A stretch of 64,000 nucleotides of DNA from NCBI RefSeq assembly GCF_024502345.1, contig NZ_JALDNN010000003.1. One strand, given 5' to 3'. The position numbers were made by a program, and so were the translations under genes. This DNA comes from Escherichia coli. GTDB taxonomy: Bacteria > Pseudomonadota > Gammaproteobacteria > Enterobacterales > Enterobacteriaceae. Shown piece by piece: positions 10,092 to 48,057 of the stretch (positions within the stretch are counted from its first letter, which is position 1; each line of letters begins with the position of its first letter). The notes under the pieces are model-generated. The model was not told where the DNA came from, searched no databases, and saw only the letters and a list, made by a program, of their open reading frames with translations.

Positions 10092-10583
10092 TTATCCATT
10101 CACCAGAGTGATTTTTGTGGGGGATACTTTGATACTAAAAGCATTAAATTTCTTTTTAAGAGCGAGTTCAAACCACGCCACCGGGATAGAGACCGAACTA
10201 TCATCGCCGCCCAATGCCTCCTCTGCCTCGTCATACCATTCATCATCAACAGACGGATTCATCCCACGGGCATAGACAACCGTATCACGGGAAACAGGGG
10301 TTCCATCCAGAGATGCATTGGTAATCAGATAGACGCCATGATCTTTTACCAGAAGGATCTGTGGAGTCAGGCGGGCCGGGTCAATGTGTTTGGATGATGG
10401 CCAGAAAATTCCCCCCGTCTGGTTCATTTCCACTTCTGTTTTGCCCTCTTCGTTGAGAGGAGTACCGCCGGGGTAATTTGACGGTTCAAAAAGCTGTTCA
10501 ATGGTTGCATTGAACCGTTCCGCCGAGCGGAGTTCTTCGAGGAGCTTTTTTACCCCAGCAATTTCGAATGTTAATGTGGTCAT
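10092..10583 (-). CDS. hypothetical protein, 163 aa (resembles the DUF3085-type proteins common on conjugative plasmids)
   Basis: Start set at the ATG 9 nt after GGAG. The ORF-track start at 10598 overlaps the upstream stop. Confidence 0.6.
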   Translation of the reverse strand: MTTLTFEIAGVKKLLEELRSAERFNATIEQLFEPSNYPGGTPLNEEGKTEVEMNQTGGIFWPSSKHIDPARLTPQILLVKDHGVYLITNASLDGTPVSRDTVVYARGMNPSVDDEWYDEAEEALGGDDSSVSIPVAWFELALKKKFNAFSIKVSPTKITLVNG

Positions 10584-10587
10584 AAAC

Positions 10588-10896
10588 TTATTCTCCATCC
10601 GTAGTCAGCATCAGATATCGGGTGGCCAGTAGCAACTCTTTGACGTCAGCAGTTGAAACCTCCCCTTTGCCTTCTACCGCGTCCTGCAAACGCTGACGCG
10701 TCGCCTGAATCGTCTCTGACGACAGTGACGCCAGTTTGCTCAATACAGCGTTAGCTTTTTCCACAGCGGGATACAGGGACTCTGAGGTGGTATTGTCTAC
10801 ATCGTTATCGAAAAACAGGTCAGACTCCATATTAATATTGTCTTCGAGCCAGCTGGTAAGAATATCAAGTAAAGACATAACTTTATTAATCTGCAT
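10588..10896 (-). CDS. hypothetical protein, 102 aa
   Basis: Start set at MQINKVMSLL. The longer track ORF (to 11088) would read through the predicted promoter at 10925-10960. Confidence 0.5.
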   Translation of the reverse strand: MQINKVMSLLDILTSWLEDNINMESDLFFDNDVDNTTSESLYPAVEKANAVLSKLASLSSETIQATRQRLQDAVEGKGEVSTADVKELLLATRYLMLTTDGE

Positions 10897-12622: not shown

Positions 12623-13231
12623 TCACCCGGTAATAACGATGGCCTGTTCCAATTGTGGCTGGCGATCCCCCCGCAGCGCTACCGACTCCTGGAGGCGTGC
12701 GGAAGGCATCGTCATTGCCTTAAACCCCTCATCCCGCGAACGCACCAGCATCCCCCACGAATGGGTTTCACAGACATCGTTCTCGAAATTGGGTTCGGTC
12801 GACAGCAGTGATTCCATCTTCGGTTCGATGTGTACCGGCGCAATGTTTTTATAAACAGGGTGAACACGACACTGTTCAGACGCTTGTGCTCGGTAGCTCC
12901 CTTGCGCCAGCAGCACGTCATGGGAAACCAGGTCATAATCTGTATCTTCGACAAAAGTCTTCAGGGTGTGCGTTATTTTGCCGAATCCTTCGATATTCCA
13001 GACGGACACCATCGTAAACTCTTCAAACGCACGGGGACTTTTGACCAAAAATCCATTCAGCGCCCTACGCCCCTTCAGCATCCCCACCAGGTATTGCTTG
13101 TTGGGATAAGGGCGCATCGCAACAAGGTCATTACCAGTCAGGCGTAGCGACAGTTCCGGGACGCTTACGGAATCCAGCGTGCAAAGATTTCCCATCGGAT
13201 GCAGGATTTTTGGTACAAGGTGCAAAAACAT
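12623..13231 (-). CDS. hypothetical protein, 202 aa
   Basis: Strong RBS (GAGGAG) 7 nt upstream of the ATG. Confidence 0.6.
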   Translation of the reverse strand: MFLHLVPKILHPMGNLCTLDSVSVPELSLRLTGNDLVAMRPYPNKQYLVGMLKGRRALNGFLVKSPRAFEEFTMVSVWNIEGFGKITHTLKTFVEDTDYDLVSHDVLLAQGSYRAQASEQCRVHPVYKNIAPVHIEPKMESLLSTEPNFENDVCETHSWGMLVRSRDEGFKAMTMPSARLQESVALRGDRQPQLEQAIVITG

Positions 13232-13261: not shown

Positions 13262-13798
13262 TTATTGTGCCGTCGCCTGATGTATTTCGAACCAGAAGAC
13301 AACCGGCTTTTCCGTGACTTCAATTAACCCAAATCGCTCTGCGGTTCTGAAGTTGACGCTGTATGCCCTGGCGCGTTCTACCTGGCGGCTTATTTCTTTC
13401 CTCATGCCTTCAACACTTAATGCACCTTTAAAGAGATTGCAGGGGGCGCAAGCCGGAAAAAGATTTTCGATTGCATGCAGTTCAGGGTGCATGACCTTAC
13501 CGGTACTTCGAGCCCGGTGTGTCACTCGACTTCCAGCGGGGGCTCTGACCATTTCAAAATCCCGCCTCACCGGTTCAACATGATCGGCATGCCAGCCTTT
13601 TTCCGGCAAAGGACAGCCGCAGTAGGCACACCGACCGCCAAATTTCAAACGCAGTTCGGCTCGTTGCTCTTTGGATATTTTATTTTTTGGTTTTGAAAAT
13701 CGCCCATCATCAGATTCAACCTTCGGGAGGAGTTCTGAAAAATTGGGTAATTCGATTACTGCGCCTTTGTTATTTAGAACTTTCACCGGACCTCCCAA
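13262..13798 (-). CDS. HNH endonuclease-family protein, about 175 aa
   Basis: CAYCGCPL...WHADHVEPV...NLFPACAPCNLFKG is an HNH/Zn-ribbon pattern. The start is TTG at 13798 or GTG at 13786. Confidence 0.7.
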   Translation of the reverse strand: MGGPVKVLNNKGAVIELPNFSELLPKVESDDGRFSKPKNKISKEQRAELRLKFGGRCAYCGCPLPEKGWHADHVEPVRRDFEMVRAPAGSRVTHRARSTGKVMHPELHAIENLFPACAPCNLFKGALSVEGMRKEISRQVERARAYSVNFRTAERFGLIEVTEKPVVFWFEIHQATAQ

Positions 13799-18297: not shown

Positions 18298-18473
18298 ATT
18301 ATTTCCTGAATTTGGCTTTCGCTGTATTGTCGCGATATTTATTAAATCCATTTAATATCTTCAGCGCAATATGTGAAGCTAAAAATAGTTAAATTGAAAT
18401 CATGCCAATTTAATTAAATAACACTGAACAAATAAAATTACGCGGCAATAAATATATTATGTTCTCCACGCTC

Positions 18474-33179: not shown

Positions 33180-33381
33180 TGTAAGGGTTGAAGTGTGCTT
33201 CTGATGTTTTTAGAACGGATCGGAATTTACTCACATTTTGATCGTGATGATTCAATACGTGACAGAGCATAGTTATCAACAGGATAGAATAATAATAAAG
33301 ATCAATAGAGGATCAATAGCAGATCAAAAAGGAATAACGATCCTCGCAGCCCAGTGATAGCGGGCCTCTCAGCGGATCAGC

Positions 33382-33484
33382 ATCCACTGTACAGGGGGAG
33401 AAATACACTATGTCGGGTAATCCATCCACTGTACCGGGCGCATAATCCACTATACCGGGTAGATTCGATACACTATAGCGGGTA
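33382..33484. repeat. four iteron-like repeats (ATCCACTRTACCGGG) upstream of rep
   Basis: Copies begin at about 33382, 33424, 33445 and 33466. They are the inverse orientation of the downstream iterons. Confidence 0.75.
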
Positions 33485-33520
33485 GGATGTAGATCTTATG
33501 CACAAAACGGATCTCCCAAT

Positions 33521-34402
33521 ATGTCCAGTAATAACAACAAGTTATCTCTCGTCATTGAAGAGTCCCTAAAAGATTCAGGGGAAGTTATACAACTCTTTCC
33601 CACATTAAAACAGACCATTCAACCGAAAGTTTTACTCCGCCTAGGTGTGTTTGTGCCGACTTTGAAATCTACGGACAAGGGGGGGAGGAAGAGCCATCAT
33701 ATCGATGCCACTGAGCCGCTATCAAGGTTATCTATTGTAGAGGGTGAAGGTTACAGCCAGATCCAAATCTACGGGCCGCGTCTCGATATGGATACCGATT
33801 TCAAATCATGGTGTGGGATCGTTTATGCGTTGTCTAACCGGCCGCTTGATTCAGAAGGTCAGCTGGAGCTGAATTTTCCGGAGTTTGCAAAATTTTGTGG
33901 GTTTGATACCAAGCGCATTGATAAACAACTGAAAGAGCGCTTTGATGCTTCGCTGACGCGTATAGCCCGGACCAACATTTCATTTATTAAGAAAATACCC
34001 GGTACAGATGATCAGATAACGATAAACATGCACCTGGTGGAATCGACGTATTACGACAGTTCCACGGGAAAAATCATCATCAAGCCAAATTCGAAGCTCA
34101 ATACGCTGTATCGCGTCGACGGTAAAACCCGACTCTACCTGAAGACATTGCAAAAACTGGCCCGTAAGGAGTCCGCACAGGCCCTGTACCTGTATCTGGC
34201 TGAGCTGCCGAGCACCTTTTACCGCATCGGATTCGATCGGCTTCGTGGACGACTCCAACTGTCATCACACCTCGGTAACCAGAATGCCACGGTTAAAAAG
34301 GCGCTGGGCCAGCTTAAAGAGATCGGTTTTCTGGAATACTCCATAGACAAAGAAAACGGCGATTACGTACTGAATATTCTAAAGAGAAACATGAAGCCAT
34401 GA
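33521..34402 (+). CDS. iteron-type replication initiator (RepHI1-type), 293 aa
   Basis: Homologous to the second initiator at 47182-48057 (LLRLGVFVPT / LLRLSVFTPV; DFKSWCGIVYA / DFKCWLGCIMA; ESAQALYLYL / EAAQSLYIYF) and flanked by iterons. I cannot tell from sequence alone whether it is RepHI1A or RepHI1B. Confidence 0.85.
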   Translation: MSSNNNKLSLVIEESLKDSGEVIQLFPTLKQTIQPKVLLRLGVFVPTLKSTDKGGRKSHHIDATEPLSRLSIVEGEGYSQIQIYGPRLDMDTDFKSWCGIVYALSNRPLDSEGQLELNFPEFAKFCGFDTKRIDKQLKERFDASLTRIARTNISFIKKIPGTDDQITINMHLVESTYYDSSTGKIIIKPNSKLNTLYRVDGKTRLYLKTLQKLARKESAQALYLYLAELPSTFYRIGFDRLRGRLQLSSHLGNQNATVKKALGQLKEIGFLEYSIDKENGDYVLNILKRNMKP

Positions 34403-34987: not shown

Positions 34988-35503
34988 TCATCGAGTCTCA
35001 GGGGTTTTAAGCCGGTAGACACCCTTCCACCAGGAGTCGAAAGACAAGCTATCATCGCAGCGCATAAATATGCCGTTATGCTTGGTGACAACGCTAAGAT
35101 AGCCTTTATTTTTCCCGCAGATCTTCTCAAAAGACTCTGTTGCTTTAATAAAATTTTCACCATCCGTGATGGCCGGAGAATCCAGTTCCTTCGCCAGCCA
35201 TGCCGGATAGCTGTCCGCATTAACCCATACAAGGCGTTCAACAACTGAAAAGAAGACGCCGACAAGGCCAATCGTCCAAAGCGTAATAACTAGTAAACGC
35301 AAAATTCGTAAGGCTATAAATTTTGAGTGCTGTAGAGGCGAAACGATAAAAGGCAGTGAGATCATGACTGTTAGTGAGACTGATGCCGCCAGCAAGGTGT
35401 ATAACAATGACCATGATTTAACATAGGCGGAAAAAGCGATCATTAAACAAATCAGAATGATGAGCGGTGCATTGCTTTTCATCATGCCCGTGCTAATTTT
35501 CAT
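34988..35503 (-). CDS. integral membrane protein, 171 aa
   Basis: Four hydrophobic helices in the N-terminal two-thirds. Confidence 0.55.
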   Translation of the reverse strand: MKISTGMMKSNAPLIILICLMIAFSAYVKSWSLLYTLLAASVSLTVMISLPFIVSPLQHSKFIALRILRLLVITLWTIGLVGVFFSVVERLVWVNADSYPAWLAKELDSPAITDGENFIKATESFEKICGKNKGYLSVVTKHNGIFMRCDDSLSFDSWWKGVYRLKTPETR

Positions 35504-35703
35504 TCTTTTGGGGCTCCATTTTGTACGAGTTTTGAGAGACTGCGTTTGTAATCATCCGCTGCCTTAGAAAAGTTACCGTCATTCTGTACCGGCGTAAAGC
35601 GAATGCCAAAAAACGCCTCAATGACGGAGGAAAGCGTCACTATCGGTCCTGACGAGGCATGGGCTTTTCGCTCCCGAGCCTCACGCTCCGCAAAGTGGAT
35701 CAC
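35500..35703 (-). CDS. hypothetical protein, 67 aa
   Basis: 4-nt overlap with the downstream membrane-protein gene. Confidence 0.4.
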   Translation of the reverse strand: MIHFAEREARERKAHASSGPIVTLSSVIEAFFGIRFTPVQNDGNFSKAADDYKRSLSKLVQNGAPKE

Positions 35704-35825
35704 CGGTCCCCTAGAAAATGAGAGTGAGTCATGGGAAGACCAGTCTGTTTATAGCCACAGTAGTTAAACGCACCCCGCCAGTCCGTCGCTGTTTGACATC
35801 ATGGCCGCGAATTAGGTTAACGTCG

Positions 35826-35948
35826 CCCGGTATAGTGTAATCCCAGGCTGAACCTGTGTTTGCAGCTGGTGGCCCTGCATCCATCACCATGACAGGCGCT
35901 GGCCGCAGGAATCGCGTGCCGGATGAAGGGTATCCACTATACCGGGTG
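35826..35948. repeat. two outlying iteron copies in inverted orientation
   Basis: CCCGGTATAGTGTAA at 35826 and ATCCACTATACCGGGTG at 35932. Confidence 0.6.
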
Positions 35949-36153
35949 AATGATATGTTGATCCACGCTGACGGGTAGTTTTATGAGCAAACCCGCAGCG
36001 AGTGGCAGGCCTGTGTCATTCGCAGTTTTACTGATGGGACGGAAGGTTATCCACAAAAACGGTGAATAACCCTGTGACCGGAATCTGGATAATCATCATT
36101 GCGGCGACAACAACAGAAAGAAGTGGCCCGGACTTGGCCACCCTACCCTGCTT

Positions 36154-38610
36154 TTACTTCAGTTCCTCTATATTCAGCATAAATTCAGAAGTTCCAACGA
36201 CGCCGGAAGTCGAAGGAAAAATAGGGAAGCTGCGGCTGTCACCCAGACCCAGATCCAACTGAACATTTTTGCTCTCCCCAGGAGCTGCGGAAACCCCATT
36301 CACCGTGACGCCGAAGGTTGCATCCTTACGCACCGTCAGTATCGCGTCCTGTTTCCCGGTTGCGATAGACCCGTCCTTCTTACGCAGCTGGCTGGCATAA
36401 AGAACCGCCAGCGGTGTGTCATCGGACGTTTTCAGCGCGGTACTAACGGAGATGGTCTTAAGGTTTTCCAGACGAACCAGGTTGTTCGGCAAGTAACTAA
36501 ATTCGACGGCGCTTTCTTTAACGTTGTTCATCTCGTCTTTGGCCTGCACGGTAAGCGTGTAAGTTTCGCCGTCGTTAAGTGAAGGAAAGATCTTCGGGTA
36601 ATTCGGGGCATAAAGATTATTTCCGAGGTTTACCCACGACAACTCAACAGCATCAGATACCGGGCCACCGCGAAGCGTCATTCGCGTTAAAGAGGGCTTG
36701 GTCAGGGTATCTGCGAGCTGAATACGAATGTTCTCCAGTCCATACACCGTTACACTGCTGGTGATAGGTTTGGTTTCGTAGCTGATACTGATGGACGGCG
36801 GCGTGTTATCGACCGTCACAGTCTTATAGTCCAGACTACCCGTATTGTTGAACGAATCCTGGGCGTTGAGCTGCACGTTATAGCTGCCCTCCGGGATTAG
36901 TTTCAGGTTGAACTCGTATGTATAATTCCCGGTTGCTGTGTTACGCCCCGTTAGTGTTCCGGTCACATTGATATCCGCGTTATTGCGGGATTTGTCGGAC
37001 AGCCACACCCGGCTCAGTTTAACGGTATCGAAATACGATCCGTCTCCCGGCTGGTTGATGTAAACCTGAAGGATGTTGGTCGTATCATTGTAGTCATAGC
37101 CAGTGACCGAAGGCCCCAGCGTATGCCAGACGACGTTTTCCCAGATAGGCATGAAGAAGGTGGATTCTGTTGTGGAACGTACCTCATAACCACTATGCAG
37201 ATAGCCGGTGGTGCCGTTTGTAATCGCCTGTGTCAGGGCGACGGTACACGACGTTGACCCGGCAGGGATGTTGCAGGTGGCACCGCCAGTAATTTTTTGG
37301 TCGTAGGGCCTTGCCTGCACATTGAAACGGATCTTGGTCAGGTTCACCGGCATATCTGAAGCCTTGAAGTATTTCCAATTGACGCTGTTAAACCAGGTAC
37401 CATCGGACATCTGTCGCTCAATCGCCGGACTCCCCCATGCAGGACTTTTTACCGAAGCCGGGTCCCAGTTCAGCCAGGAGGCGTATTGCGTCAGATCGCC
37501 TCCGGACCATTGGTACGTGTTCACTGGGCGATAGTAGTTTATATCCAGAGCGCCCTGGGGAAGCTTCACCTCGACGTACACATAGGTCGTGTCTTCTGAA
37601 ATAACCTGAGCACCGCCATAATTGTTAAGAATGGTGATGCCGCCGTTACGGTATGGCTTCCAGTTGGTTCGGGGGATACGGATGACCATACGGTATGGGT
37701 TTTCGAGTACAGATAGCCCCCGAACAAACGGGACGTACCCTGAAGAGATCCCCGGGACCACACTCGTACTGACGCGTGAGTCATGAACCGCAAAGGGGGT
37801 GTATTCACCTATCTGGTCATCAAATAAAAAGCGCTGCGGCGGAATATTCAGCGTGTTTCCGGCTTTATCTGTGATGATAAAATTGAAGGTAAATTCTTCA
37901 TTGAGATCGCTGGTGGGCATACCGGGTTGAGTGACCGCGTCCTTGATCCAGGGGTAAAAGGCACGTTTTGCCGCCGTATCGTAACTGAGTGTGTTGTCGG
38001 ACACGACTGTGCCATTTCCGCGCTTGATGACCAGACGGATCTTGTCTATGCCATTCGCATCATCAACTCCATCAGCAAAGATGGAAAACTGGCCAGATCC
38101 TCCGCGCCCAAGCCCCCAAACTGGCCCACTCAGGACCATTTCATAGCCTGCGTTCTGGCTCGGGTAGATGCTGGTATACTTTGGCGCTGTAGTGTCGATT
38201 GTGAAATGATACGTTGAAGAGCTGACGACAGCCTGCTGGAGATCCAGGGTATCGTTGATGACGGTGAAGGCCCCTTCACCGAGTGCGGGTAACGCCAAGT
38301 CCTTTCCGTAATATTCCGTGCCGTCTGCGGCAACAATGCGATCTGCGACGCTTATCTTTCCTGTCACTGCGGAATACATGACCTTTTTGTCACTGTCCCT
38401 GGTCACACTCACTCGTTCGTATCGGTCAAGGCCGGAGATCAGATTCAGGGTCATTGTGCTTGCCGGATTAAGGTAGCTCTGCGTGGCAGGCTTAAGCGTC
38501 TTTGCCAGCTGATTGGTGTCAGTATACGAATAGCTGAAAATCTGAGCCGCCGCCGGATAAACTGAAGCTATGGCCGTGGCAATGATACAGCCTGTCAGAA
38601 TTTTACGCAT
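36154..38610 (-). CDS. large secreted bacterial Ig-like (Big) domain protein, 818 aa (RSP-family)
   Basis: Start at MRKILTGCIIATAIASVYPAAAQ (GGGAG RBS; the track ORF starts at 38658). Paralog of 28876-31260. Confidence 0.8.
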   Translation of the reverse strand: MRKILTGCIIATAIASVYPAAAQIFSYSYTDTNQLAKTLKPATQSYLNPASTMTLNLISGLDRYERVSVTRDSDKKVMYSAVTGKISVADRIVAADGTEYYGKDLALPALGEGAFTVINDTLDLQQAVVSSSTYHFTIDTTAPKYTSIYPSQNAGYEMVLSGPVWGLGRGGSGQFSIFADGVDDANGIDKIRLVIKRGNGTVVSDNTLSYDTAAKRAFYPWIKDAVTQPGMPTSDLNEEFTFNFIITDKAGNTLNIPPQRFLFDDQIGEYTPFAVHDSRVSTSVVPGISSGYVPFVRGLSVLENPYRMVIRIPRTNWKPYRNGGITILNNYGGAQVISEDTTYVYVEVKLPQGALDINYYRPVNTYQWSGGDLTQYASWLNWDPASVKSPAWGSPAIERQMSDGTWFNSVNWKYFKASDMPVNLTKIRFNVQARPYDQKITGGATCNIPAGSTSCTVALTQAITNGTTGYLHSGYEVRSTTESTFFMPIWENVVWHTLGPSVTGYDYNDTTNILQVYINQPGDGSYFDTVKLSRVWLSDKSRNNADINVTGTLTGRNTATGNYTYEFNLKLIPEGSYNVQLNAQDSFNNTGSLDYKTVTVDNTPPSISISYETKPITSSVTVYGLENIRIQLADTLTKPSLTRMTLRGGPVSDAVELSWVNLGNNLYAPNYPKIFPSLNDGETYTLTVQAKDEMNNVKESAVEFSYLPNNLVRLENLKTISVSTALKTSDDTPLAVLYASQLRKKDGSIATGKQDAILTVRKDATFGVTVNGVSAAPGESKNVQLDLGLGDSRSFPIFPSTSGVVGTSEFMLNIEELK

Positions 38611-38785
38611 GTGATACTCCCGGGATGTATTTGCCCCTATTTTACGAAATCTTTTCACCTGGGCTTGCTGGTTAGCCGGGGTATTTCACGGCATAAAACT
38701 TTTAAATGTTGCCGTGATAGCAATGTTGTCGGGTCAGAACAAAACGAAAGTTAAGGCAACTTCAACAGGGCTGATTACGGTGGAA

Positions 38786-38800
38786 GAAAAGTAACTTTTC
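38786..38800. promoter_or_regulatory. perfect GAAAAGTWACTTTTC box
   Basis: Reads GAAAAGTAACTTTTC, about 175 bp upstream of the Ig-like gene start. Confidence 0.6.
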
Positions 38801-39055
38801 TCTTGAGAAGAAATAGGAAAAGCAGAAATTAGGACGATTAAATGAGGTGAAATGTCAGCAACAGGCGATGATTGTCCATCATCGTAAGGGAGGGTACAGG
38901 GTGCCGCTGCCTTACTGGCATCATGTTGATGTCCAGCTCTTCATACCCGTTTGTACCTTAGCCGGAACTGTTGTTCAGTACAGGTAAAAGTTGTAATAAC
39001 TCCCCGCTCACTGCCGGGGAGTCATTTTAAATCAGCACGGCGCCATCAGAATAGA

Positions 39056-39232
39056 TTAGCTTTCAAACCAGGGCGAATCGGCAGAGTTCGCAGATTCTTC
39101 ACTTTGCTGTGACTCCCCCAGAAATTGCACTTCACGTACTGGTTTACTTTTCCCCAGGCTCCGCTGGAAATCATCCATCACAAACTCAATATCATCACGG
39201 TCCTCAGGCAAGACAGGCGAACTTTTGGACAT
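39056..39232 (-). CDS. possible small acidic protein, 58 aa (below the ORF-track cutoff)
   Basis: My own translation is MSKSSPVLPEDRDDIEFVMDDFQRSLGKSKPVREVQFLGESQQSEESANSADSPWFES. AAGGAAAG RBS. It starts 14 nt after the methyltransferase stop. Confidence 0.45.
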   Translation of the reverse strand: MSKSSPVLPEDRDDIEFVMDDFQRSLGKSKPVREVQFLGESQQSEESANSADSPWFES

Positions 39233-39246
39233 AGTCTTTCCTTCAG

Positions 39247-40923
39247 TTAAAAGCGTTCTGCATACAGAACGCGGACGGAGACGGCAGTGTTGTCAAACTC
39301 ATTATCGAAGGTATCCATCCACTCGGTCCTGAACCCCTCGCCCAGCAGGTTATCGATCCCCTGAAGGGACAGAGGCAGGACGGCAGCTAAACGCCCGCCG
39401 GGAACCAGATGAGACGCAGCGGCCAGCAGATGCAGCTTAGCCCGGTTGTCAGCAAAAGGAGGGTTCATCACCACGCAATCAAATTTCTGAATCTGATTCG
39501 CCGCCGACCAGGCCAGAAAATCGGCTTCCGTGGTCTCGTAACCTTTAGCCCGGGAGACCAGACAATTCAGTGTATCCAGTTCGATGCCGGTTACGTTGAC
39601 ACTTTTCGGGAAACATTGAAGCAAATCCCCGTGCCCAATATTGGGCTCCAGCAGCCGTTCCCCCTCCCCGGCCGCAATAATGGATGCGACGTATTCACTG
39701 AGTCGCGCCGACGACGGATAAAACTGGTGGGATTTAATATCAGGCATGGCGCCCATATGTCCGATGAAGCGCATCACTTCGGTCGGGTCATAATCAAACG
39801 TCACATGGTAGCTTGTCACTCGGGCACCGAGAAATCGCAGAACATCCGCGTTCACCTGCCGCGTTTTATCAGCGTTCTCACCGGCATAGCCGAGCGATGT
39901 CCAGCTGGACCATTCCTTTTCATTCTGGGTAAAATCCAGCTCTGCAAGCTGCATCCGTGAATGAAAATCGATGCAGCGTTTCAGTGCCGGGAACTCCTGC
40001 AACGTCGCTTTGGTATGGGCCACGCGTTCAGCAGGCAGAGCCAGAGGGACGATGGCAGCAAGAATGTTGTTAAGCCGTTCGGCGATATCAGGATGCACAT
40101 CAATGTGCATCGATCCGTTTTTGTAGACCCGAAAACGAATACTGTTGCCATCCAGGCTGATCCAGTTTCTGAATCCAACATGACCAACCATATTCTCAAC
40201 CATTTTTTTCGTGTCATAGACCGGTTTAACTGTTTCGCCCCGGAAATAAGAACAGATCACCCGCAACTCCGAAAGTGGCATGAGGCCGGATTCTTTAAAC
40301 TCAACCTTCAGTTTTACCCATTTGTCTTTCACGCCTTCACATACGCCGGAGGTGATCATGCGAGTAGAGAAGCCAAATGCTTTATTGGTTTTGTGTTGAC
40401 GGCTTAATGACTGAAAGACGGCATAGACACGATCTTTAATGAACTGATGCCGGTCATTGAGCAACGCGACAACCGTGGTAACAACAGCATCGAGTGTAAA
40501 ATCAGGGATCTCCTGAGGAGGAAGGTGGTAACGGTCAGCAGTAAACTGCTTATCCCATTCTTTCTTCTTTTCGTCAGACATCACAGACAGTACATCGGTC
40601 AGGGCCATGACCCTCTTCCAGTATTCTGAACGCAGCGCGTTTTCTGCGTAGCTGGCATCCGCTTCTGAAATGAGATGATTGTATCCGGAGAGGTATGAAT
40701 AGAGCTTCTGATTCCCGCATTTCAGGAACTGAGCGGACATGGACCTCAGTAAGCTAAGCTCATCGTTATATGATTCGACCTGCCTGTTAATGACATCGAG
40801 CTCTTCCCGCATTTCGGGCAGGAAGTTATCGTCGTTAATAAGGAGGCCAGTATGAGGCATATAAGCAACCAGAGAACTCCCAGGGGCACCCATTGGCAGG
40901 GAATCAGATTCAACAGCAGACAT
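39247..40923 (-). CDS. N6-adenine DNA methyltransferase with a long N-terminal domain (DUF4942-like architecture), about 558 aa
   Basis: The C-terminal region has an AdoMet motif I-like LEPNIGHGD and catalytic VMNPPF. The start is set at the ATG 9 nt after AAGGA; the track ORF starts at 41001. Confidence 0.75.
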   Translation of the reverse strand: MSAVESDSLPMGAPGSSLVAYMPHTGLLINDDNFLPEMREELDVINRQVESYNDELSLLRSMSAQFLKCGNQKLYSYLSGYNHLISEADASYAENALRSEYWKRVMALTDVLSVMSDEKKKEWDKQFTADRYHLPPQEIPDFTLDAVVTTVVALLNDRHQFIKDRVYAVFQSLSRQHKTNKAFGFSTRMITSGVCEGVKDKWVKLKVEFKESGLMPLSELRVICSYFRGETVKPVYDTKKMVENMVGHVGFRNWISLDGNSIRFRVYKNGSMHIDVHPDIAERLNNILAAIVPLALPAERVAHTKATLQEFPALKRCIDFHSRMQLAELDFTQNEKEWSSWTSLGYAGENADKTRQVNADVLRFLGARVTSYHVTFDYDPTEVMRFIGHMGAMPDIKSHQFYPSSARLSEYVASIIAAGEGERLLEPNIGHGDLLQCFPKSVNVTGIELDTLNCLVSRAKGYETTEADFLAWSAANQIQKFDCVVMNPPFADNRAKLHLLAAASHLVPGGRLAAVLPLSLQGIDNLLGEGFRTEWMDTFDNEFDNTAVSVRVLYAERF

Positions 40924-41182
40924 AGCACCAGTCCTTTTTGAAGGGTTTATCTGATACCAGGATAACAACCTTGAACAAAAAGCTAATAGGTTGGCTGACA
41001 TGAAAATGGAGAAATTAACACTGCGGAAAGTCAGAAAGACAGATGTGGTTTTAATCAGAAGAAACGGGCCGGAGACAGGACAAAAAAACCCCTACATAGT
41101 AGGGGCAACGGGGGGAGAGCCTGGGTGGCTCGCTCTAAAATATCGTACTTCTTATTGTAGGCTTCTCACACTCTGAAATAAT

Positions 41183-42346
41183 TCATTTAAGCCTGTGCTG
41201 GGGGGGGGGGGCGGATTGCGGTTCTCCGCCATTTTTATCGTTTTTCTTGGTTTTGTAAGTCACTTTTTCCCCTTTCAATCGGGCTTGCCGATTTTCGGCC
41301 CGGCGAAGCTGCTTGTTTTCTGATTCCGTAATCTCACTTTGCAGGTTCTTGAGCATCTCCAACATGCTCCGGTTCAGCGTAAAGGTAATTTCTTCATCTT
41401 CGCTGGAGTCGGTCACCTCCGGCAACTCGATATCACCGAGTTTCTGCAATAGACTCGTCGTAATGAGTTTGACCCCTTCGACGGCTTTTGTAGCGAGAAC
41501 TGGTGGAACACGTGCGGGTTTAAAATCGGAAGGGACAACACGGATCTGCCCGCGTGGCGTTTTCTTAATCTGGATACCGCTTGAATCAGCCTTTTCAAGG
41601 TCTGCGATCATCTTTTCGATCCGCGCAACAGCTTCCGTTTCACCGAACTCATCGATAAGGGACAGGACTGCTACATAGGAAATGGCATCGGCATGGATCA
41701 GTTTTTTGAGATAGACACAGCAGCCGGTCAAGCGAATAAGAGCAGCAATGGTGGTATTACTTTTTCCCTCACGTTCGGCAATACGGTCAAGCGACCATCC
41801 ACCCAGCGCCTGAAGACGTCGGTAGGATTCACCCAAAGCCACAGGAGAAAGAGCTAGGCCACGGTTTCCGTCAATCGTTGTCAGTTCGCAGCTGATCTCA
41901 TCGGCTTTCATCTCGATGCAAAGAATGGTGAGGTTAGAATGCCCTTCTGCCACAGCCATCAAAGCAGCCTTTAAACGGCAATGTCCCTGGCGAACGTACG
42001 GAATGCCGTCTTTGATCAGAACGCGGATAGGGTCTACGTAATCACCCCGGATGTACGCATTCTTGATGTTATTGAGATGATCGGCGACTTCTGGCAACTG
42101 GTAATAAGCTTCCCCCATTCCCATCTCACGGGAGTTGAATCCTTCCGTGATTTGAACCACGGTTGGGCTGATAGCCCATGCTTTCTGTTCAGTGACTTCA
42201 TTACAAAGGTCAGGGTTCGCGTCGCGGAACTGCTTCATACCACTGACGAATCGGCCGGAACCGGTCACTGTTGAAAAAGACACGAGTGGGGATTTAAAGA
42301 CCCGTGAGTTAGTTTGCTGTTGGGAATCAGTCATCAGATCACTCAT
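41183..42346 (-). CDS. ParB/Srx-fold (KorB-like) protein, paralog 2, 387 aa
   Basis: GFNSREMGMGEAYYQLPEVADHLNNIKNAY...RQGHCRLKAA plus an HTH-like region. Homolog of 1572-2777 and 45571-46647. Confidence 0.8.
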   Translation of the reverse strand: MSDLMTDSQQQTNSRVFKSPLVSFSTVTGSGRFVSGMKQFRDANPDLCNEVTEQKAWAISPTVVQITEGFNSREMGMGEAYYQLPEVADHLNNIKNAYIRGDYVDPIRVLIKDGIPYVRQGHCRLKAALMAVAEGHSNLTILCIEMKADEISCELTTIDGNRGLALSPVALGESYRRLQALGGWSLDRIAEREGKSNTTIAALIRLTGCCVYLKKLIHADAISYVAVLSLIDEFGETEAVARIEKMIADLEKADSSGIQIKKTPRGQIRVVPSDFKPARVPPVLATKAVEGVKLITTSLLQKLGDIELPEVTDSSEDEEITFTLNRSMLEMLKNLQSEITESENKQLRRAENRQARLKGEKVTYKTKKNDKNGGEPQSAPPPQHRLK

Positions 42347-42705
42347 AGATACTCCGTTGAATTCTTTTTTGTCATACCTTTCATCTGTGCGTGAATACTA
42401 CCGGAAAAAAAAATCTCACTTTTTCGTTAAAAAGGTACTTTTTGGGTCTATTCCGAATTGAACGAGGAAAATTGTTCTGGCGATCAGAACAAAAAGAAAA
42501 AATAAATCAAATAAAACAGATGGTTATGGTTAATTCGTAAAGGATAAACTTTTTTCTGAGAAGTGAAAAAAAATTAAAAAATGTGTCGAAATGACAATCT
42601 CGTTAACAAAAGCCACGTTTTTTCCTGCTCATACCTTATTGGTAGCAATCCGCCTTTCGGTACCATAAGTGTGGCATACCGATAAAGCTGAACGGAGAAG
42701 ACTCG

Positions 42706-43530
42706 TTGCGAAAACATACACCAATCATCAAATGGGCGGGGGGTAAAACCAAACTGATGCCGTTCCTCAGTAAGCACTTCCCACATGATAAGAGCCGACG
42801 CTGGGTTGAACCGTTTATCGGCGGTGGCGCCGTGTTTCTGAACATGTTTGCCACCGAGGCTCTCCTGGCAGACAGCAACCCGGACCTAATCAATCTGTAC
42901 CGCAACATACAGCGAAATAAACCGGCATTCATCAGAGAAGTGCAGCTGCTGGCGGAAAGGCATTTTGAAGAAGAGGATTACTACGTGCTGCGGAATACCT
43001 TTAACAGCACCAGTTTTGATGATGCCCCGCTACAACGAGCAGCCATTTTCTACGCGATGAATCGACTCGGATATAACGGTCTGTGTCGTTACAACTTGAA
43101 GCGAAAGTTCTCAGTTCCATGGGGAAAGCGATACCAGTTCAGTCTGGATATCCAGAAGGTTGATTACCTCTCATTCAGGCTTTCGAGCGTTGAATTGAAA
43201 ACCGCAGATTTTGGTCAGACGCTGGAGTTTGCAGGTGGTGGTGACCAAATATATTGCGATCCGCCATATGACAAAATCAGTAAAACCAGCTTTGTAAGCT
43301 ATGATGGTATACCGTTCGATAAGAGCGCACATGTTAAACTGGCGGATATGCTGGTGGATGCTAATCGTAAAGGGGCCTCAGTGGCCATATCCAACAGCAT
43401 GACTCCCTTTACGCTGGAGCTCTATGAAGAACGCGGTTTTGATATTCATACTCACAACGCTTATCGGTCTGTCGGCAGTCAATCAAAGTCGCGTAAGAAG
43501 GAAATAGAAATTCTGGCCGTCCTTCGTTGA
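42706..43530 (+). CDS. dam: Dam-family DNA adenine methyltransferase, 274 aa
   Basis: PIIKWAGGK near the N-terminus and the catalytic DPPY. TTG start 9 nt after GGAG. Confidence 0.85.
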   Translation: MRKHTPIIKWAGGKTKLMPFLSKHFPHDKSRRWVEPFIGGGAVFLNMFATEALLADSNPDLINLYRNIQRNKPAFIREVQLLAERHFEEEDYYVLRNTFNSTSFDDAPLQRAAIFYAMNRLGYNGLCRYNLKRKFSVPWGKRYQFSLDIQKVDYLSFRLSSVELKTADFGQTLEFAGGGDQIYCDPPYDKISKTSFVSYDGIPFDKSAHVKLADMLVDANRKGASVAISNSMTPFTLELYEERGFDIHTHNAYRSVGSQSKSRKKEIEILAVLR

Positions 43531-43544
43531 GCGGCGATCAGTAG

Positions 43545-44366
43545 TTAGTCGATCGGGCTTATCCATTCCTCGAAGCTCAGCACTTCGGAATGGTCACGGC
43601 TGGCATAGGGAATAAACTGAAGCTCTTCAATTGATCGCTCCCCTCTCTTACCTTCGCATATAAACGATATGAACCCCTGATCTGCAAGTTGGGTAAGGAC
43701 ATTCATGATTCGTACGTTCACTGTATGCAACTGAAGATCATTCACGATATCGGTAATTTTGTGTGAATGGCGCCGGGACTTTCGCAAATAATCAAAGATG
43801 ACAAACTGGGCATTCCGTCGCTTCAATAATTTTTCCGTCATAAATTCCTGAATTAATCCCCCCAGCAACATCAGGAACGGACGAAGTACCCCAGGGAACG
43901 TTAACGTATAAGACTGCGATGTTTTGACCAGAGTGAAGGACGTCAGGAAGCTGAAGTTTAGTCGCTTCTTTGAATACGGGACATAAACAGCCAATGTCGT
44001 AGACAAGTAAGTAAGCAATTCTTCCAGATGAGCGCGTGTGATCATGACCGTCTTATCGCTATTACGAAGACCGTGATAATCAATAAATGCCACTCTGGCA
44101 CGACTCAGCCACTCGTGAATGCTTATGGATACAGTGAACGGTGCGTTTTCATCGGCAGAAATGACGCCGTGCTCAGCGAGTTGGTTATGGATAAGCATAG
44201 ACAGCTGGTAAAATGGAAAACGGCAGGATGGATGACACTGTAGGCCAGTTAGCGTTAGCTTTGCATTATCCAAGTCATCGAGCGGAAAAGTAACTTTTCG
44301 GGAAATAATTTTTGCTGACGTTCTTGCTGACTTGCGGATGAACCCAAGTCCAAGATCATTTTGCAT
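43545..44366 (-). CDS. hypothetical protein, 273 aa
   Basis: GGAG RBS 7 nt upstream of the ATG. It contains a perfect palindromic box in codons 23-27. Confidence 0.6.
   Translation of the reverse strand: MQNDLGLGFIRKSARTSAKIISRKVTFPLDDLDNAKLTLTGLQCHPSCRFPFYQLSMLIHNQLAEHGVISADENAPFTVSISIHEWLSRARVAFIDYHGLRNSDKTVMITRAHLEELLTYLSTTLAVYVPYSKKRLNFSFLTSFTLVKTSQSYTLTFPGVLRPFLMLLGGLIQEFMTEKLLKRRNAQFVIFDYLRKSRRHSHKITDIVNDLQLHTVNVRIMNVLTQLADQGFISFICEGKRGERSIEELQFIPYASRDHSEVLSFEEWISPID
44285..44299. promoter_or_regulatory. perfect GAAAAGTWACTTTTC box, intragenic
   Basis: Reads GAAAAGTAACTTTTC, 67 nt inside the 273-aa ORF. Confidence 0.5.
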
Positions 44367-44648
44367 ATATCACTCCGTTTTAACAAAATCTCCTTAACCT
44401 ATATGTTAAGAAGAGACAAAAAATTAAAAAATATAATTAATAAGATTATCATTTTTAATTTAAAAGATTAGTTAATAACGGGTGTTGAATTTAAAATAAA
44501 TCGGCTTATTTTCGGAGTGTAAAACCGGGTAAAAACCCGATGCGTGAGCAACAGATTTGACGTGAGTGAGTCGGCACGACAGTGCAGAAAGCCGGTGGCT
44601 AATGTAAAAACGGCCTGTATTTGGGAGTTCCGGTCACTAGACACCAGG

Positions 44649-45356
44649 CTATGCTGTTAATTTAAACACAGTCAGTAATGCGTAGGGCACTGAGTCAAAG
44701 TAGTGGATCTTTCTCACTTTTCCCGAAAGATGATAGCTATGCCCCAATAAAACGTGATCCTGAACATTACCAGTCAACGCGAATCCATCATTCTGCTTTT
44801 TGCCTGTAAAAGTAAAAAAATAGCTATGAGAACCTTTTGAAAACGCAGCTCGCACTTCTGTAAAAATAATATCAAAACTAACTACATCACCAATGTTGAA
44901 AGAATGTTCAATTGGAAAACCGGCGTTTTCTGAAAAAGCTTCAGAAACAGGCTGGTATGTCGAGTAGAAAGACTCCAACTGACGGACTGTTAAAAAGAGA
45001 TTGTTGTTTAACTGCTGTGCAATGCTTGCTGCAAACTTAGAATTGTCAGCTTGCAGCAATGCTAACTGCTCGCTGTGCCTACGTTTCCAGGCTTCAAGAT
45101 CGGGATTGCAGCGAAGTTCCGGGATAGTTTCAAGGAATTCAATGCACTCTTTCAGTACCAGCTTTTCCTCTGTGGCTGGAGACGTTTTGGAGCCATTGCA
45201 TGTCACACAGACGGCGTTCGCAATCTTTCCAGTCCCTCCGCATTCAAAGCACTCACGGGTGATAACGGCGTAATAGTGTCCATCTTTACCGTAGATAGGC
45301 TTTACGGATGATGGCAGTAAATAACCATCCTGAGTAAAAAAAAGAGAATGTTTCAT
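44649..45356 (-). CDS. protein with a DnaJ-type zinc-finger pair, 235 aa; paralog of 23481-23948
   Basis: Contains CFECGGTGK...CVTCNGSK. 4-nt overlap with the upstream 66-aa ORF. Confidence 0.6.
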   Translation of the reverse strand: MKHSLFFTQDGYLLPSSVKPIYGKDGHYYAVITRECFECGGTGKIANAVCVTCNGSKTSPATEEKLVLKECIEFLETIPELRCNPDLEAWKRRHSEQLALLQADNSKFAASIAQQLNNNLFLTVRQLESFYSTYQPVSEAFSENAGFPIEHSFNIGDVVSFDIIFTEVRAAFSKGSHSYFFTFTGKKQNDGFALTGNVQDHVLLGHSYHLSGKVRKIHYFDSVPYALLTVFKLTA

Positions 45357-45553
45357 TTTTTAAGGTTCTCCAGTCGAGCCTCCACGAGCTGTAAAGCGTC
45401 AGTTACCTTCTGTACGTATTGATCGTGCCCTTCTTCAAAATGATCAAAACGCTTTCCAGCCTTGATCTCTTCAATGTTGCGATCGAGTGTGCCTTTTGTA
45501 ATAAGTAGATCGTTATAAGTATTAATTACAGTAAACTGTGCAATCTTGTCCAT
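45353..45553 (-). CDS. hypothetical protein, 66 aa
   Basis: Lies between the ParB-like-3 and zinc-finger genes on the same strand, with tight spacing. Confidence 0.5.
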   Translation of the reverse strand: MDKIAQFTVINTYNDLLITKGTLDRNIEEIKAGKRFDHFEEGHDQYVQKVTDALQLVEARLENLKK

Positions 45554-45570
45554 AAACGGTCCTTAGCATT

Positions 45571-46647
45571 CTACTCACTTGTTAACAGGTCACGAATTTC
45601 ATGCAGTTCTGTAACCTTAGATTTTGGAATGATGATAGCAGTATTTTCATCATTCAGAAGGCTTAATAAAAGCTGGAGTTTTGCTTCATCTAGAGTGATC
45701 TTTACACTTTCCGTTGTCTTTGTGATGGAAGTGCTGCTGATGTTCGTAAATAAATTGGAATGTTGTCCGTCGAAAATTAATTCGGTGAGTTTATTACTGT
45801 CGTTTAGTGCTGGCCGTACAGTATCAATCAGCCCGATAAATTCAGTTTTTAAGCGTTCAGTTTTTTTATGAGAAAGCCGTTTAATACCCAATGAACTGCG
45901 AGTGATGGATTTTGTTTTAACTTCCTTAGGAATAACATGAACAGGGAGTGTTTCCGGGTTATCTAGTTTCTCATCGTTTGATGATGTTTGAACGCTTGAT
46001 GTCTTAGATAAAACAGGTTCTGGTTCAGTTGATGGTACTAAAAGAGAACACGATTCCAAATGTGCAAGGACTTTTGCATGGTCATTGGAATACTTCAACA
46101 TGATCTCAATCGCGAGTGTTTTTTTAATCAGGTTTAGACTGATTAAACGTTGTAGTTCTAAAGGCATATCAAGGATTTTAAGCTGGTTACGAATAGCAGT
46201 GCTAGACCGTTGATAGCGCATAGCAAGGGATTCAACGGTAGAGCCAAGCTTCAGCGCCTCTGCCAGTGCATAAGCTAAGGCTACGGGATTAAGACCGTTA
46301 TTCCTATTCCCATCAAGGTTCTCCAGGTATTCTTCACTTTTATTCTTATAGTTCATAACAACTACTGAAATGAGCTGAATATCAGCTCCTTCCGCAAGAG
46401 CAAGAGATAGTGCTCTGTAACGGCAATGCCCCTGCCTTACAACGTAATTGGAGTCTTTCTTAACAACCTTAATTAAATCGACTCGTCTGCCCTCTTTATA
46501 GGCTTGTTTAATAGAAACAATGGTCGATTTTACTGGTTCCTGTTCATAACAAAGTTCACCAATTACCGCTTCACGTGGATTGAATCCAGATTCGATAAAA
46601 AGTGCTTTAGGACTGATCTCAATAATCTGATAGTCGCAGTGATTCAT
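45571..46647 (-). CDS. ParB/Srx-fold (KorB-like) protein, paralog 3, 358 aa
   Basis: GFNPREAVIGELCYE...RQGHCRYRALSLA plus an HTH-like region. AAGGAGG RBS. AT-rich codon usage, unlike paralogs 1 and 2. Confidence 0.8.
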   Translation of the reverse strand: MNHCDYQIIEISPKALFIESGFNPREAVIGELCYEQEPVKSTIVSIKQAYKEGRRVDLIKVVKKDSNYVVRQGHCRYRALSLALAEGADIQLISVVVMNYKNKSEEYLENLDGNRNNGLNPVALAYALAEALKLGSTVESLAMRYQRSSTAIRNQLKILDMPLELQRLISLNLIKKTLAIEIMLKYSNDHAKVLAHLESCSLLVPSTEPEPVLSKTSSVQTSSNDEKLDNPETLPVHVIPKEVKTKSITRSSLGIKRLSHKKTERLKTEFIGLIDTVRPALNDSNKLTELIFDGQHSNLFTNISSTSITKTTESVKITLDEAKLQLLLSLLNDENTAIIIPKSKVTELHEIRDLLTSE

Positions 46648-47044
46648 ATAACCTCCTTTTTATTACATGATACATTAATTGACTCAGTTTCAAATAACCC
46701 AAAAGCAAAAAACAATTAATTCGGTGCTTGACTGTAATTTTAGTTATGAAGGAATTAGGCCATTTTAATTTAAAATTTTTAAATCTGAATGGTTTGAAAT
46801 TAATATATCTTAAAAGCTTCAGATTGATTGATACTTCTTCCGGCTGCATTCCCTACTTGGCTAGAGTCCGAACCTGAACTTTTTAGGTCAGAGTTGGTTA
46901 ACAGACGGAATTTATCCACGTTTTCCACAAGTTAGATCAATTCTTTAGATCAAGAGAGATCAAGAGAGTACAAAAAAGATCACAGGTTCCGTAAATGACT
47001 GATTTTATTATGGAATAAGCATGATCAGGCATTCAGGTGCATGT

Positions 47045-47181: not shown

Positions 47182-48057
47182 ATGAGTGATAACAATGAGG
47201 TAACACATCCTTTTGATGTGACCAACACGGAGACAGGGAAGACTTATCAACTGAGTCCAAACTCTTCGAAATCGGTCCAACCCATTGCTTTACTGCGCTT
47301 AAGTGTTTTTACCCCGGTGGGAACTAAAGAGAAGCGATACAGAAATTTTGAGGTTGACGCTTCTGATGAGTTGTCGAGCATGGAGCTGGCCCGTTCAGAA
47401 GGATACGATGACATTCGGATCACTGGTCTTAAGCTTTCGATGTCAACCGATTTTAAGTGTTGGCTCGGTTGCATAATGGCGTTCAGCAAATATGGTTTCG
47501 CTTCCGATAAAATCACATTGTCATTCAATGAGTTTGCAAAAATGTGTGGTATCAGTTCTACAAACATAAACAAGCGAACTCGCTCACGATTTCAGGAGGC
47601 GCTAGCAAACCTAGCTTCCGTTGTGATTTCTTTCCGTGATTCAAAAACTGAACGTTTTACTGTCACGCACCTTGTGCAGAAAGCAGTGATTGATCCTAAG
47701 AAGGACACCGTAGAGTTGGTGGGCGATCCCTCAATGTGGGAGCTTTACCGGTATGATCATAAAACCTTACTTAGTTTGCAGGTGCTTTCGGTTCTCGCTA
47801 AAAAAGAGGCAGCACAAAGCCTGTACATATATTTTGAGGCGATGCCTGCCGGTACGTTATTCGTAAGCATGAAGCGTTTGCGTGAGCGACTTCTGTTGAC
47901 GACTCCTGTACGAACTCAAAACCAGATCATCAGGAAGGCGATGCTGGAGTTAAAATCAATAGGATATCTTGAATATCAAGAGGTTAAGAAAGGTAGAGAT
48001 ATCCAGTTCCAGATTTTTAAAAGAAGTCCAAAACTTGCTCTGGCAAAACACAGTTGA
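47182..48057 (+). CDS. iteron-type replication initiator (RepHI1-type), 291 aa
   Basis: Homolog of 33521-34402, flanked by its own distinct iterons. Confidence 0.85.
   Translation: MSDNNEVTHPFDVTNTETGKTYQLSPNSSKSVQPIALLRLSVFTPVGTKEKRYRNFEVDASDELSSMELARSEGYDDIRITGLKLSMSTDFKCWLGCIMAFSKYGFASDKITLSFNEFAKMCGISSTNINKRTRSRFQEALANLASVVISFRDSKTERFTVTHLVQKAVIDPKKDTVELVGDPSMWELYRYDHKTLLSLQVLSVLAKKEAAQSLYIYFEAMPAGTLFVSMKRLRERLLLTTPVRTQNQIIRKAMLELKSIGYLEYQEVKKGRDIQFQIFKRSPKLALAKHS

Follow-up and report, generated by a model that had tools for sequence, protein, structure and literature searches.

The window analyzed here, i.e., the whole 64,000-nt stretch of Escherichia coli DNA from the RefSeq assembly GCF_024502345.1 (contig NZ_JALDNN010000003.1), belongs to an R27-type IncHI1 resistance plasmid and harbors a block of genes in which two adenine methyltransferases flank a ParB-like protein, designated ParB-like-2. 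In the reading that we hold to be probable, the block is a vertically inherited piece of the plasmid backbone carrying two solitary DNA adenine-N6 methyltransferases, one of the Dam family and one with the domain DUF4942 (hereafter, the DUF4942 methyltransferase). The methylation of the plasmid in the donor would protect it from restriction, and the ParB-like genes of the block would not be obligate partners of the enzymes. Anti-restriction appears to be the most likely function of the pair. The central features are as follows:

39247-40923, minus strand: DUF4942 methyltransferase, 558 amino acids (aa); disordered residues 1-35, an N-terminal helical and alpha/beta region with DUF4942 (about 36-385) and a C-terminal catalytic domain of the gamma-type N6-adenine class
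42706-43530, plus strand: Dam-family (alpha-class, D12) DNA adenine-N6 methyltransferase, 274 aa, TTG start, with probable GATC specificity
41183-42346, minus strand: ParB-like-2, 387 aa; orphan ParB/Srx-type N-terminal domain (GFNSRE, GHCRLKA and IDGNR boxes) and a helix-turn-helix
39056-39232, minus strand: acidic open reading frame (ORF), 58 aa, isoelectric point 4.2, 14 nt downstream of the DUF4942 methyltransferase gene
43545-44366, minus strand: orf273, modeled as a tandem winged-helix, Rep/RctB-like DNA-binding protein, convergent with the Dam gene and 14 bp away from it

All ORFs listed in the initial annotation are present, and its description of two orphan N6-adenine methyltransferases flanking ParB-like-2 holds, both having intact catalytic motifs (DPPY in the Dam-family enzyme and NPPF in the DUF4942 methyltransferase). 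The same is true of the 558-aa NPPF enzyme with a long N-terminal domain, which is read from the ATG at 40923 with NPPF at residue 487, and of the acidic nature of the 58-aa ORF.

The block is a long-sequenced and annotated piece of the IncHI backbone and, as large conjugative plasmids with solitary methyltransferases go, nothing out of the ordinary. A segment of 5.5 kb spanning the locus is 99.7% identical to Salmonella Typhi R27 (NC_002305.1, 43137-48635) and pHCM1, and the sequence of the locus matches 281 plasmid records, 274 of which are typed as conjugative. The RefSeq products in R27 are, in order, a hypothetical protein (58 aa), a DUF4942 domain-containing protein, a DNA-binding protein, a Dam family methyltransferase and four more hypothetical or zinc finger-like proteins. 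Two RepB-family replication genes (33521-34402 and 47182-48057) bracket the locus, and the start of the Tra2 transfer genes adjoins it. No functional study of these genes came up when the literature was searched by DUF4942, R27/IncHI methyltransferases and the RefSeq protein accessions.

The two methyltransferases and the search for a partner nuclease

The Dam-family enzyme is readily assigned by PF02086 (E-value 9.5e-54, 183 bits vs. a cutoff of 22) and TIGR00571 (230.5 bits vs. a cutoff of 114.85). Its motifs follow the alpha-class order, with the S-adenosylmethionine-binding FxGxG motif (FIGGG at residue 37) preceding the catalytic DPPY at residue 185 of 274. Residues 1-272 align with E. 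coli Dam (2G1P, E 8.5e-41) and DpnM (2DPM, E 1.2e-40), both of them GATC enzymes, and the DNA-reading loop NRxGYNGLCRYNL is kept in these alignments. In the Dam–DNA structure, E. coli Dam contacts GATC via K9, the Y119-N126 loop GYNGLCRYN and P134; in the alignment to 2G1P, the GATC-contacting elements IIKWAGGK, GYNGLCRYNL and VPWG are all retained by the plasmid enzyme. Most likely, judging from these residues, the plasmid Dam methylates GATC. Thus, it shares the motif order, the reading loop and an end-to-end alignment with E. coli Dam, DpnM (DpnII M1) and the solitary Dam homologs of phages and plasmids (D12, PF02086), and, like E. coli Dam, it lacks a partner nuclease. It differs from E. 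coli Dam in being plasmid-borne and in its TTG start, and it falls under the NCBIfam equivalog cutoff for the chromosomal Dam (171 vs. 441 bits).

The reading frame of the DUF4942 methyltransferase opens, as in RefSeq, with the ATG at 40923, and both this ATG and its ribosome-binding site (AAGGA) are kept in IncHI2; an alternative ATG further upstream (41001), from which the protein would have 584 aa, lacks such conservation. DUF4942 (PF13708) is matched at 81.7 bits vs. a gathering cutoff of 25, over residues 122-316 of the 584-aa reading. Motifs X, I and IV come in the gamma order (QFYP at 400, EPNIGHG at 426 and NPPF at 487), and N487, P488 and P489 are invariant across 72 family members. 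An AlphaFold model built with these 72 sequences (predicted local distance difference test 85, predicted template modeling score 0.77) displays a disordered N-terminus, a helical and alpha/beta part extending to about residue 395 and a Rossmann domain reaching the end of the chain. Judging from its sequence, the catalytic domain is of the N6-adenine amino-methyltransferase type with the gamma order of motifs.

The closest solved relative by sequence profile is M.TaqI (E 4e-7), whose 28% identity is the highest among the DNA enzymes listed. The order of motif X (FYP-T/S-P), motif I (LEPxxGxG) and motif IV (NPPF) is common to the DUF4942 methyltransferase and the gamma class of M.TaqI and type I HsdM. 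Unlike those enzymes, it ends about 70 residues past NPPF, inside the Rossmann fold, and hence has no C-terminal target-recognition domain; nor is there an HsdS-like specificity gene near it (ORF list and Pfam). Instead, it possesses the N-terminal DUF4942 region of about 350 residues, which has no solved-structure relative by sequence profile and which presumably supplies the DNA binding. A search among viral folds was uninformative (template modeling score at most 0.32).

The DUF4942 enzyme is probably co-translated with the 58-aa acidic protein. The small protein is 63% identical in IncHI2, where its ORF overlaps the methyltransferase stop, and 42% identical in a more distant lineage related to the block at 52% identity (L006); it is absent from a lineage at 46% identity (L010). 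No family match to it was found in the Pfam, NCBIfam, PHROG or PADLOC searches.

In accord with the initial annotation, which had seen no endonuclease adjacent to these genes, no nuclease family matches any ORF from 34988 to 46647, i.e., within about 5 kb on either side (Pfam, NCBIfam and PADLOC). The nearest weak match, of the HNH type, is borderline and resides 25 kb off in a 178-aa ORF (13262-13798, minus strand). The adjacent cognate endonuclease by which type II restriction–modification is recognized accompanies neither methyltransferase, so, as far as these tools tell, both enzymes are solitary.

A restriction–modification system might still be concealed in the block if orf273 or the N-terminal region of the DUF4942 methyltransferase represented a divergent endonuclease, which we consider highly improbable. 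The location of orf273, convergent with the Dam gene at a distance of only 14 bp, and the lack of a family match to its product would fit this suggestion, as would the label “RE endonuclease” attached to some phage homologs of the DUF4942 methyltransferase and a conserved D...H-x-E-x-H-P-D pattern located on a beta-meander in the fused form of DUF4942. As to orf273, its AlphaFold 2 model matches the winged-helix folds of RctB and RepA, i.e., of initiators and regulators, and no nuclease fold, by which its candidacy for the missing endonuclease was ruled out. In all lineages, moreover, orf273 accompanies the ParB-like-3 gene set. Homologs of orf273 were found only at 54% identity or more, and BLASTP against the two Rep proteins gave no significant match. 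Counting orf273, three Rep-like proteins are encoded within 14 kb, the other two by the annotated rep genes.

As to DUF4942, it also occurs as a standalone 286-aa protein devoid of the methyltransferase domain (L094, 4899-5759) in the pOXA-48-type IncL/M plasmid NZ_OW967978.1. The residues of the H-x-E-x-H-P-D pattern are missing from this protein, its acidic and His positions being replaced, which argues against a conserved catalytic role for DUF4942. A nuclease domain in this region was likewise rejected for want of a PADLOC, Pfam or PDB-profile match to it; the PADLOC searches gave no nuclease match even at E 10.

ParB-like-2 and its relation to the neighboring methyltransferase gene

Further features bear on the expression of the block and its evolutionary history:

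41081-41106, minus strand: terminator-like hairpin GCCCCTAC-TAT-GTAGGGGT followed by seven T, in the gap between the ParB-like-2 and DUF4942 methyltransferase genes
40959-40986, minus strand: promoter-like element TTAGCT-16 nt-TATCCT upstream of the DUF4942 methyltransferase gene (putative, a consensus match)
42347-42705, no strand: divergent intergenic region between ParB-like-2 and Dam, 359 bp, 65% A+T, with seven A or T runs of at least 6
42429-42443, no strand: perfect 6-3-6 inverted repeat AAAAAG-GTA-CTTTTT, a candidate operator about 85 bp upstream of the ParB-like-2 start
42639-42666, plus strand: promoter-like element TTGGTA-16 nt-TACCAT, about 40 nt upstream of the Dam TTG, as read from the sequence
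45571-46647, minus strand: ParB-like-3, 358 aa, heading the neighboring same-strand gene set; phrog_1033 at E 9.4e-24
45353-45553, minus strand: small ORF, 66 aa, overlapping the start of the zinc-ribbon gene; its positional counterparts in IncHI2, L006 and L010 have 65-69 aa
44649-45356, minus strand: zinc-ribbon protein, 235 aa, with a DnaJ-type CxxCxGxG motif; orthologs in IncHI2 (L002), L006 and L010
1572-2777, minus strand: third ParB-like paralog, 401 aa; profile of ParB-like-2/3 at E 4e-40, PF17762 at 1.5e-5

The direct operon link between ParB-like-2 and the methyltransferase turned out weaker than the initial annotation had it. The two genes are separated by 259 nt containing the terminator-like hairpin and the promoter-like element, and their adjacency is confined to IncHI1, IncHI2 and two untyped relatives. 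The GC-rich hairpin is present in all four of these lineages, down to 46% identity, and its counterparts in IncHI2 (5843-5860), L006 (7895-7912) and L010 (7869-7886) retain the hairpin and the T-run with other stem sequences. Downstream of it, the alignment of the four lineages shows invariant TTA and TA.CCTGG columns, giving the element TTAnnn-16-TA(T/A)CCT, which the promoter scanner flagged in L006 as TTAACA-16-TATCCT. The folding energy of the gap RNA is not better than that of shuffled sequences (z -0.3), so only the terminator hairpin stands out. The conserved order of a hairpin with a T-run followed by a promoter-like element suggests that ParB-like-2 and the methyltransferase probably do not form a simple operon; their transcription is probably separate or attenuated. 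The DUF4942 gene would be insulated from ParB-like-2 by the intrinsic terminator, and each methyltransferase appears to have a promoter of its own.

The putative promoter of Dam was not flagged by the strict promoter scanner; the aligned position in IncHI2 reads TTAGTT-16-TACGAT. The divergent region agrees with the control region of roughly 360 bp with long A/T runs noted initially. Its palindromic box was also noted, at 42427-42443, and is present but is not degenerate, since a perfect inverted repeat is found there. This low-complexity repeat occurs once in the window, is itself identical in IncHI2 within a 35-bp block that is identical or nearly so, is partly kept in the 52% lineage and is not recognizable in the 46% lineage. 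Another perfect 8-bp inverted repeat, TTGTTCTG-GCGAT-CAGAACAA (42472-42492), with a GATC across the loop and a T-run following on the minus strand, was considered as a Dam-sensitive operator and dropped, as it is not conserved in IncHI2.

The eight-gene block was found only in IncHI1, IncHI2 and the two more distant untyped relatives. Its order (ParB-like-3, the small ORF, the zinc-ribbon protein, orf273, Dam on the opposite strand, ParB-like-2 and the DUF4942 methyltransferase) is kept in IncHI2 (70% identity) and in the 52% and 46% lineages. The block is probably vertically inherited in these plasmids, where it is located between the two RepHI1 replicons. The small ORF of the ParB-like-3 set also contains five GATC sites within 90 bp (45421-45511), spaced by 17-27 bp.

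ParB-like-2 itself matches phrog_1033 (“ParB-like partition protein”, E 3.8e-30) and stays below the cutoffs of PF17762 (22.5 vs. 22.6 bits) and TIGR00180 (18 vs. 58 bits). It aligns weakly with Spo0J, and its arginine box, GHCRLKA, keeps the GxxRxxA spacing but is not the canonical GERRxRA. ParB-like-3 is 34% identical to it (E 5e-23) and matches TIGR00180 below the cutoff (E 2.5e-8). The downstream side of the third paralog is occupied by an insertion sequence transposase gene (74-1042). No ParA gene accompanies ParB-like-2 in the block (ORF list and Pfam), and no ParA-binding motif was seen by eye in its N-terminus; the true partition genes of R27 are located elsewhere (ParA/ParB at 23-25 kb and ParM at 19 kb). 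The three paralogs are therefore orphan ParB-type DNA-binding proteins.

They resemble KorB of the IncP-1 plasmid RK2 and other orphan ParB-fold proteins (PMC12704722) in having a ParB N-terminal domain and a helix-turn-helix, in being plasmid-encoded and not paired with ParA, and in standing at the head of backbone gene sets. The differences from the KorB type are the degenerate arginine box of ParB-like-2 (GHCR for GERR) and the Pfam/TIGRFAM scores below the cutoffs. Judging from these traits, the ParB-like proteins are most likely KorB-style regulators or organizers of plasmid DNA heading the neighboring transcription units, and not obligate partners of the methyltransferases.

A closer relationship can be envisaged, in which ParB-like-2 binds a site on the plasmid, possibly as a CTP-dependent clamp, and either recruits the DUF4942 methyltransferase or controls its expression, so that methylation is targeted or regulated, as in the phage fusions of the ParB fold to DNA methyltransferase domains reported in PMC12704722. 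The persistence of the gene pair in four lineages down to 46% identity and the conserved inverted repeat upstream of ParB-like-2 are consistent with this proposition, which we nevertheless regard as improbable. The four adjacent cases represent one vertically inherited block and hence a single observation, and the conserved terminator and the separate promoter-like element stand between the two genes, which are separate, unlike in the phage fusions. The degenerate arginine box of ParB-like-2 and the two other ParB-like paralogs, heading units with no methyltransferase, point in the same direction.

The distribution of both families speaks against such a partnership as well. Outside the lineage, 21 loci were compared; an intact DUF4942 methyltransferase gene (30-36% identity) is present in 19 and was not called in the other 2, and in none of the 21 was a relative of the ParB-like proteins found within 5 kb by single-sequence or profile searches. 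Orthologs of ParB-like-2, the most similar of the three paralogs to the proteins in question, do occur in IncC and IncHI1B plasmids. In the IncHI1B case, genes for YuiA and an Ig-like protein come after the ortholog, which has no methyltransferase beside it. In the IncC plasmid NZ_AP028316.1 (L095, 3950-7167), the ortholog (31% identity) is followed by three small ORFs and then, about 1 kb downstream, by a non-homologous N6/N4 methyltransferase of PF01555 with Mrr_N. This recurrence is a suggestive but thin hint of an independent ParB–methyltransferase link. A ParA gene is located further downstream of the PF01555 methyltransferase in the same plasmid.

Probable protection from restriction and its alternatives

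There is precedent for plasmid methyltransferases that protect conjugative entry (PMC7736820, PMC11541004, PMC11602122, PMC6555945). The IncA/C (IncC) plasmids offer a close parallel, with several solitary methyltransferase genes on a MOBH/MPF_F backbone, one of them just downstream of the ParB-like-2 ortholog; according to the authors, the triple deletion of the IncC methylases abolishes transfer to new hosts (PMC6555945). The enzyme families there differ (C5-cytosine and PF01555), and the gene next to the ParB-like ortholog carries Mrr_N.

At the same time, anti-defense methyltransferases such as M.EcoGIX sit among the first-transferred genes (PMC7736820, PMC11541004). M.EcoGIX and M.BceJIII are likewise solitary adenine methyltransferases of conjugative plasmids, understood as a protection from restriction in the recipient, but they are beta-class DPPY enzymes of the leading region, single-strand-specific and with a single-strand promoter that drives their expression from the strand entering the recipient (PMC7736820). 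The enzymes described here are of the alpha class and gamma-like and are encoded remotely from the origin of transfer (oriT), so the description of M.EcoGIX sets them apart from it. No single-strand promoter was found here, no search aimed at one having been made. Kinship to M.EcoGIX, a beta-class DPPY enzyme of the leading region, was accordingly rejected.

For R27, oriT was placed beside mobI, as reported in PMC10838148. On the R27 map, the MOBH relaxase and mobI reside at 104-108 kb and the locus at 43-48 kb, i.e., about 60 kb apart, so the locus is not among the first-transferred genes of the leading region beside oriT. Any protection would be exerted, then, mainly via methylation in the donor and re-methylation after establishment. 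The two enzymes would methylate the plasmid DNA in the donor and again once the plasmid is established, the plasmid would thereby arrive restriction-resistant at the modified motifs in a new host, or soon become so, and Dam may additionally service the GATC-rich origins flanking the block. Of the protection from recipient restriction proposed initially, the solitary state of the enzymes and the lack of a nuclease are upheld, and it appears the most likely function; the leading-region position on which the best-documented plasmid cases rest is missing.

Several points weigh against this interpretation. Early expression of the leading-region type does not apply at a distance of about 60 kb from oriT, and the protective gain from a plasmid-borne GATC enzyme is small in hosts from Enterobacteriaceae, which already own a Dam. 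In the structure comparison, the catalytic domain of the DUF4942 methyltransferase matches METTL5 best, an rRNA N6-methyladenine (m6A) methyltransferase, so that DNA is a likely substrate but not a certain one. Its N-terminal region alone has no relative in the PDB profiles, no other Pfam or PADLOC match and no detectable relative of known function. The promoter and terminator calls are consensus matches, and the literature searches yielded no activity, motif or phenotype data for either enzyme.

The similarity to METTL5 makes an RNA target a minority possibility, DNA being the likely substrate from the context. The suggestion that the DUF4942 protein methylates RNA (m6A or N2-methylguanine in rRNA or tRNA) or protein, and not DNA, would be in line with its weak matches to the Pfam MTS and RsmC-type profiles, with one source naming a relative of it a “predicted RNA methylase” and with the occurrence of NPPF in RNA and protein amino-methyltransferases as well. 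We find it quite unlikely: the best sequence-profile match among solved structures is a DNA enzyme, M.TaqI, the PADLOC matches are models of type II and orphan DNA methyltransferases, and the family is located in phage early/nin regions and plasmids, as is typical for DNA methyltransferases.

The role of Dam deserves separate consideration. It has to be asked whether its tasks are mainly of the housekeeping kind, such as the methylation of the RepHI1 origin, the timing of SeqA sequestration or the control of Dam-sensitive promoters, rather than anti-restriction; this appears unlikely to us, though it is less easily dismissed than the other alternatives. P1- and F-type iteron origins depend on Dam. 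GATC sites are clustered upstream of both rep genes flanking the Dam gene, with 11 in 296 bp (33218-33513) and 5 in 92 bp (46935-47026) against a window average of about 1 per 300 bp, and the modification of GATC by the host Dam in Enterobacteriaceae leaves a small protective value to a second enzyme of this kind. However, host Dam, if enough for protection, should be enough for the methylation of the origin, too, and the housekeeping role leaves the second, non-Dam methyltransferase unexplained. A role in origin methylation or Dam-sensitive regulation is compatible with a protective one and does not exclude it. The 46935-47026 cluster is composed of AGATCA repeats followed by AAAGCATTT-type iterons; by their sequence, both clusters, one on each side of the plasmid Dam gene, resemble origin elements sensitive to Dam or SeqA.

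The DUF4942 family beyond IncHI plasmids

The DUF4942 enzyme represents a widespread family that nobody has characterized; in the literature searched, DUF4942 appears only as an annotation label. The family comprises 4318 cluster representatives at E 0.001 or below, 355 of them scoring below 1e-30, and members below 1e-30 are mostly of 500-600 aa among the 150 listed. The match of the enzyme to the phage family phrog_6263 spans its whole length (E 1e-114), and tblastn retrieved about 3600 plasmid records and 166 phage records, including SSU5-type phage-plasmids as well as Pseudomonas and Vibrio phages. Outside the IncHI block, it stands alone in prophages, SSU5-like phage-plasmids and other plasmids. 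In a Pseudomonas prophage, a lone DUF4942 methyltransferase gene is situated within the nin region, flanked by the replication genes and NinB/NinG, a location that is classic for solitary methyltransferases of phages. Such lone settings in phages and phage-plasmids are the usual ones for solitary protective methyltransferases.

Some neighborhoods of the relatives are recorded here for their gene content. The standalone DUF4942 gene of NZ_OW967978.1 is surrounded by genes for JAB/RadC, DGQHR, Hha, DUF1380, antirestriction and ssb proteins, a leading-region-type anti-defense setting. In the Providencia plasmid NZ_CP120534.1 (L004, 5716-8363), a gene for a restriction endonuclease of the modification-dependent AbaSI family directly follows the DUF4942 methyltransferase homolog, and a further gene, for a DNA adenine methylase, is located 5 kb upstream. 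A metagenome contig (L005, 931-4695) carries a homolog of 35% identity in a same-strand array with a Dam-type methylase of PF05869, a VapBC pair and a Tad2-like (anti-Thoeris) protein, which suggests an anti-defense island.

Other genes of the window, all on the minus strand, include an 834-aa Ig-like (DUF4165/Big_3) gene (36154-38658), intact here and split by an IS30 insertion in the R27 reference; a gene of an 809-aa protein with a PAPS-reductase domain (15922-18351); and genes of a DUF6012 protein (12623-13231) and a DUF3085 protein (10092-10598), DUF3085 being also encoded beside the standalone DUF4942 gene of pOXA-48-type plasmids.

A more far-reaching proposition combines two independent parts, namely that the ParB-like-2 orthogroup of MOBH plasmids (IncHI1, IncHI2 and IncC) is a DNA-loading factor directing or gating an interchangeable neighboring methyltransferase, and that DUF4942 is a new DNA-recognition module. 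Taken jointly, they have little probability in our estimation. If true, ParB-like-2 would confer plasmid-specific methylation as a split version of the phage ParB–methyltransferase fusions, and DUF4942 would be the hallmark of a large class of adenine methyltransferases from phages and plasmids, possibly of relaxed specificity.

Returning to the two enzymes as solitary protective methyltransferases, the size of the DUF4942 family means that a single methylome experiment on the enzyme would provide an annotation for many genes in one go. Across Enterobacteriaceae, multidrug and colistin resistance is spread by IncHI plasmids. The backbone methyltransferases may help them to cross restriction barriers, and the motifs modified by these enzymes would thus help to predict the host range of the plasmids.

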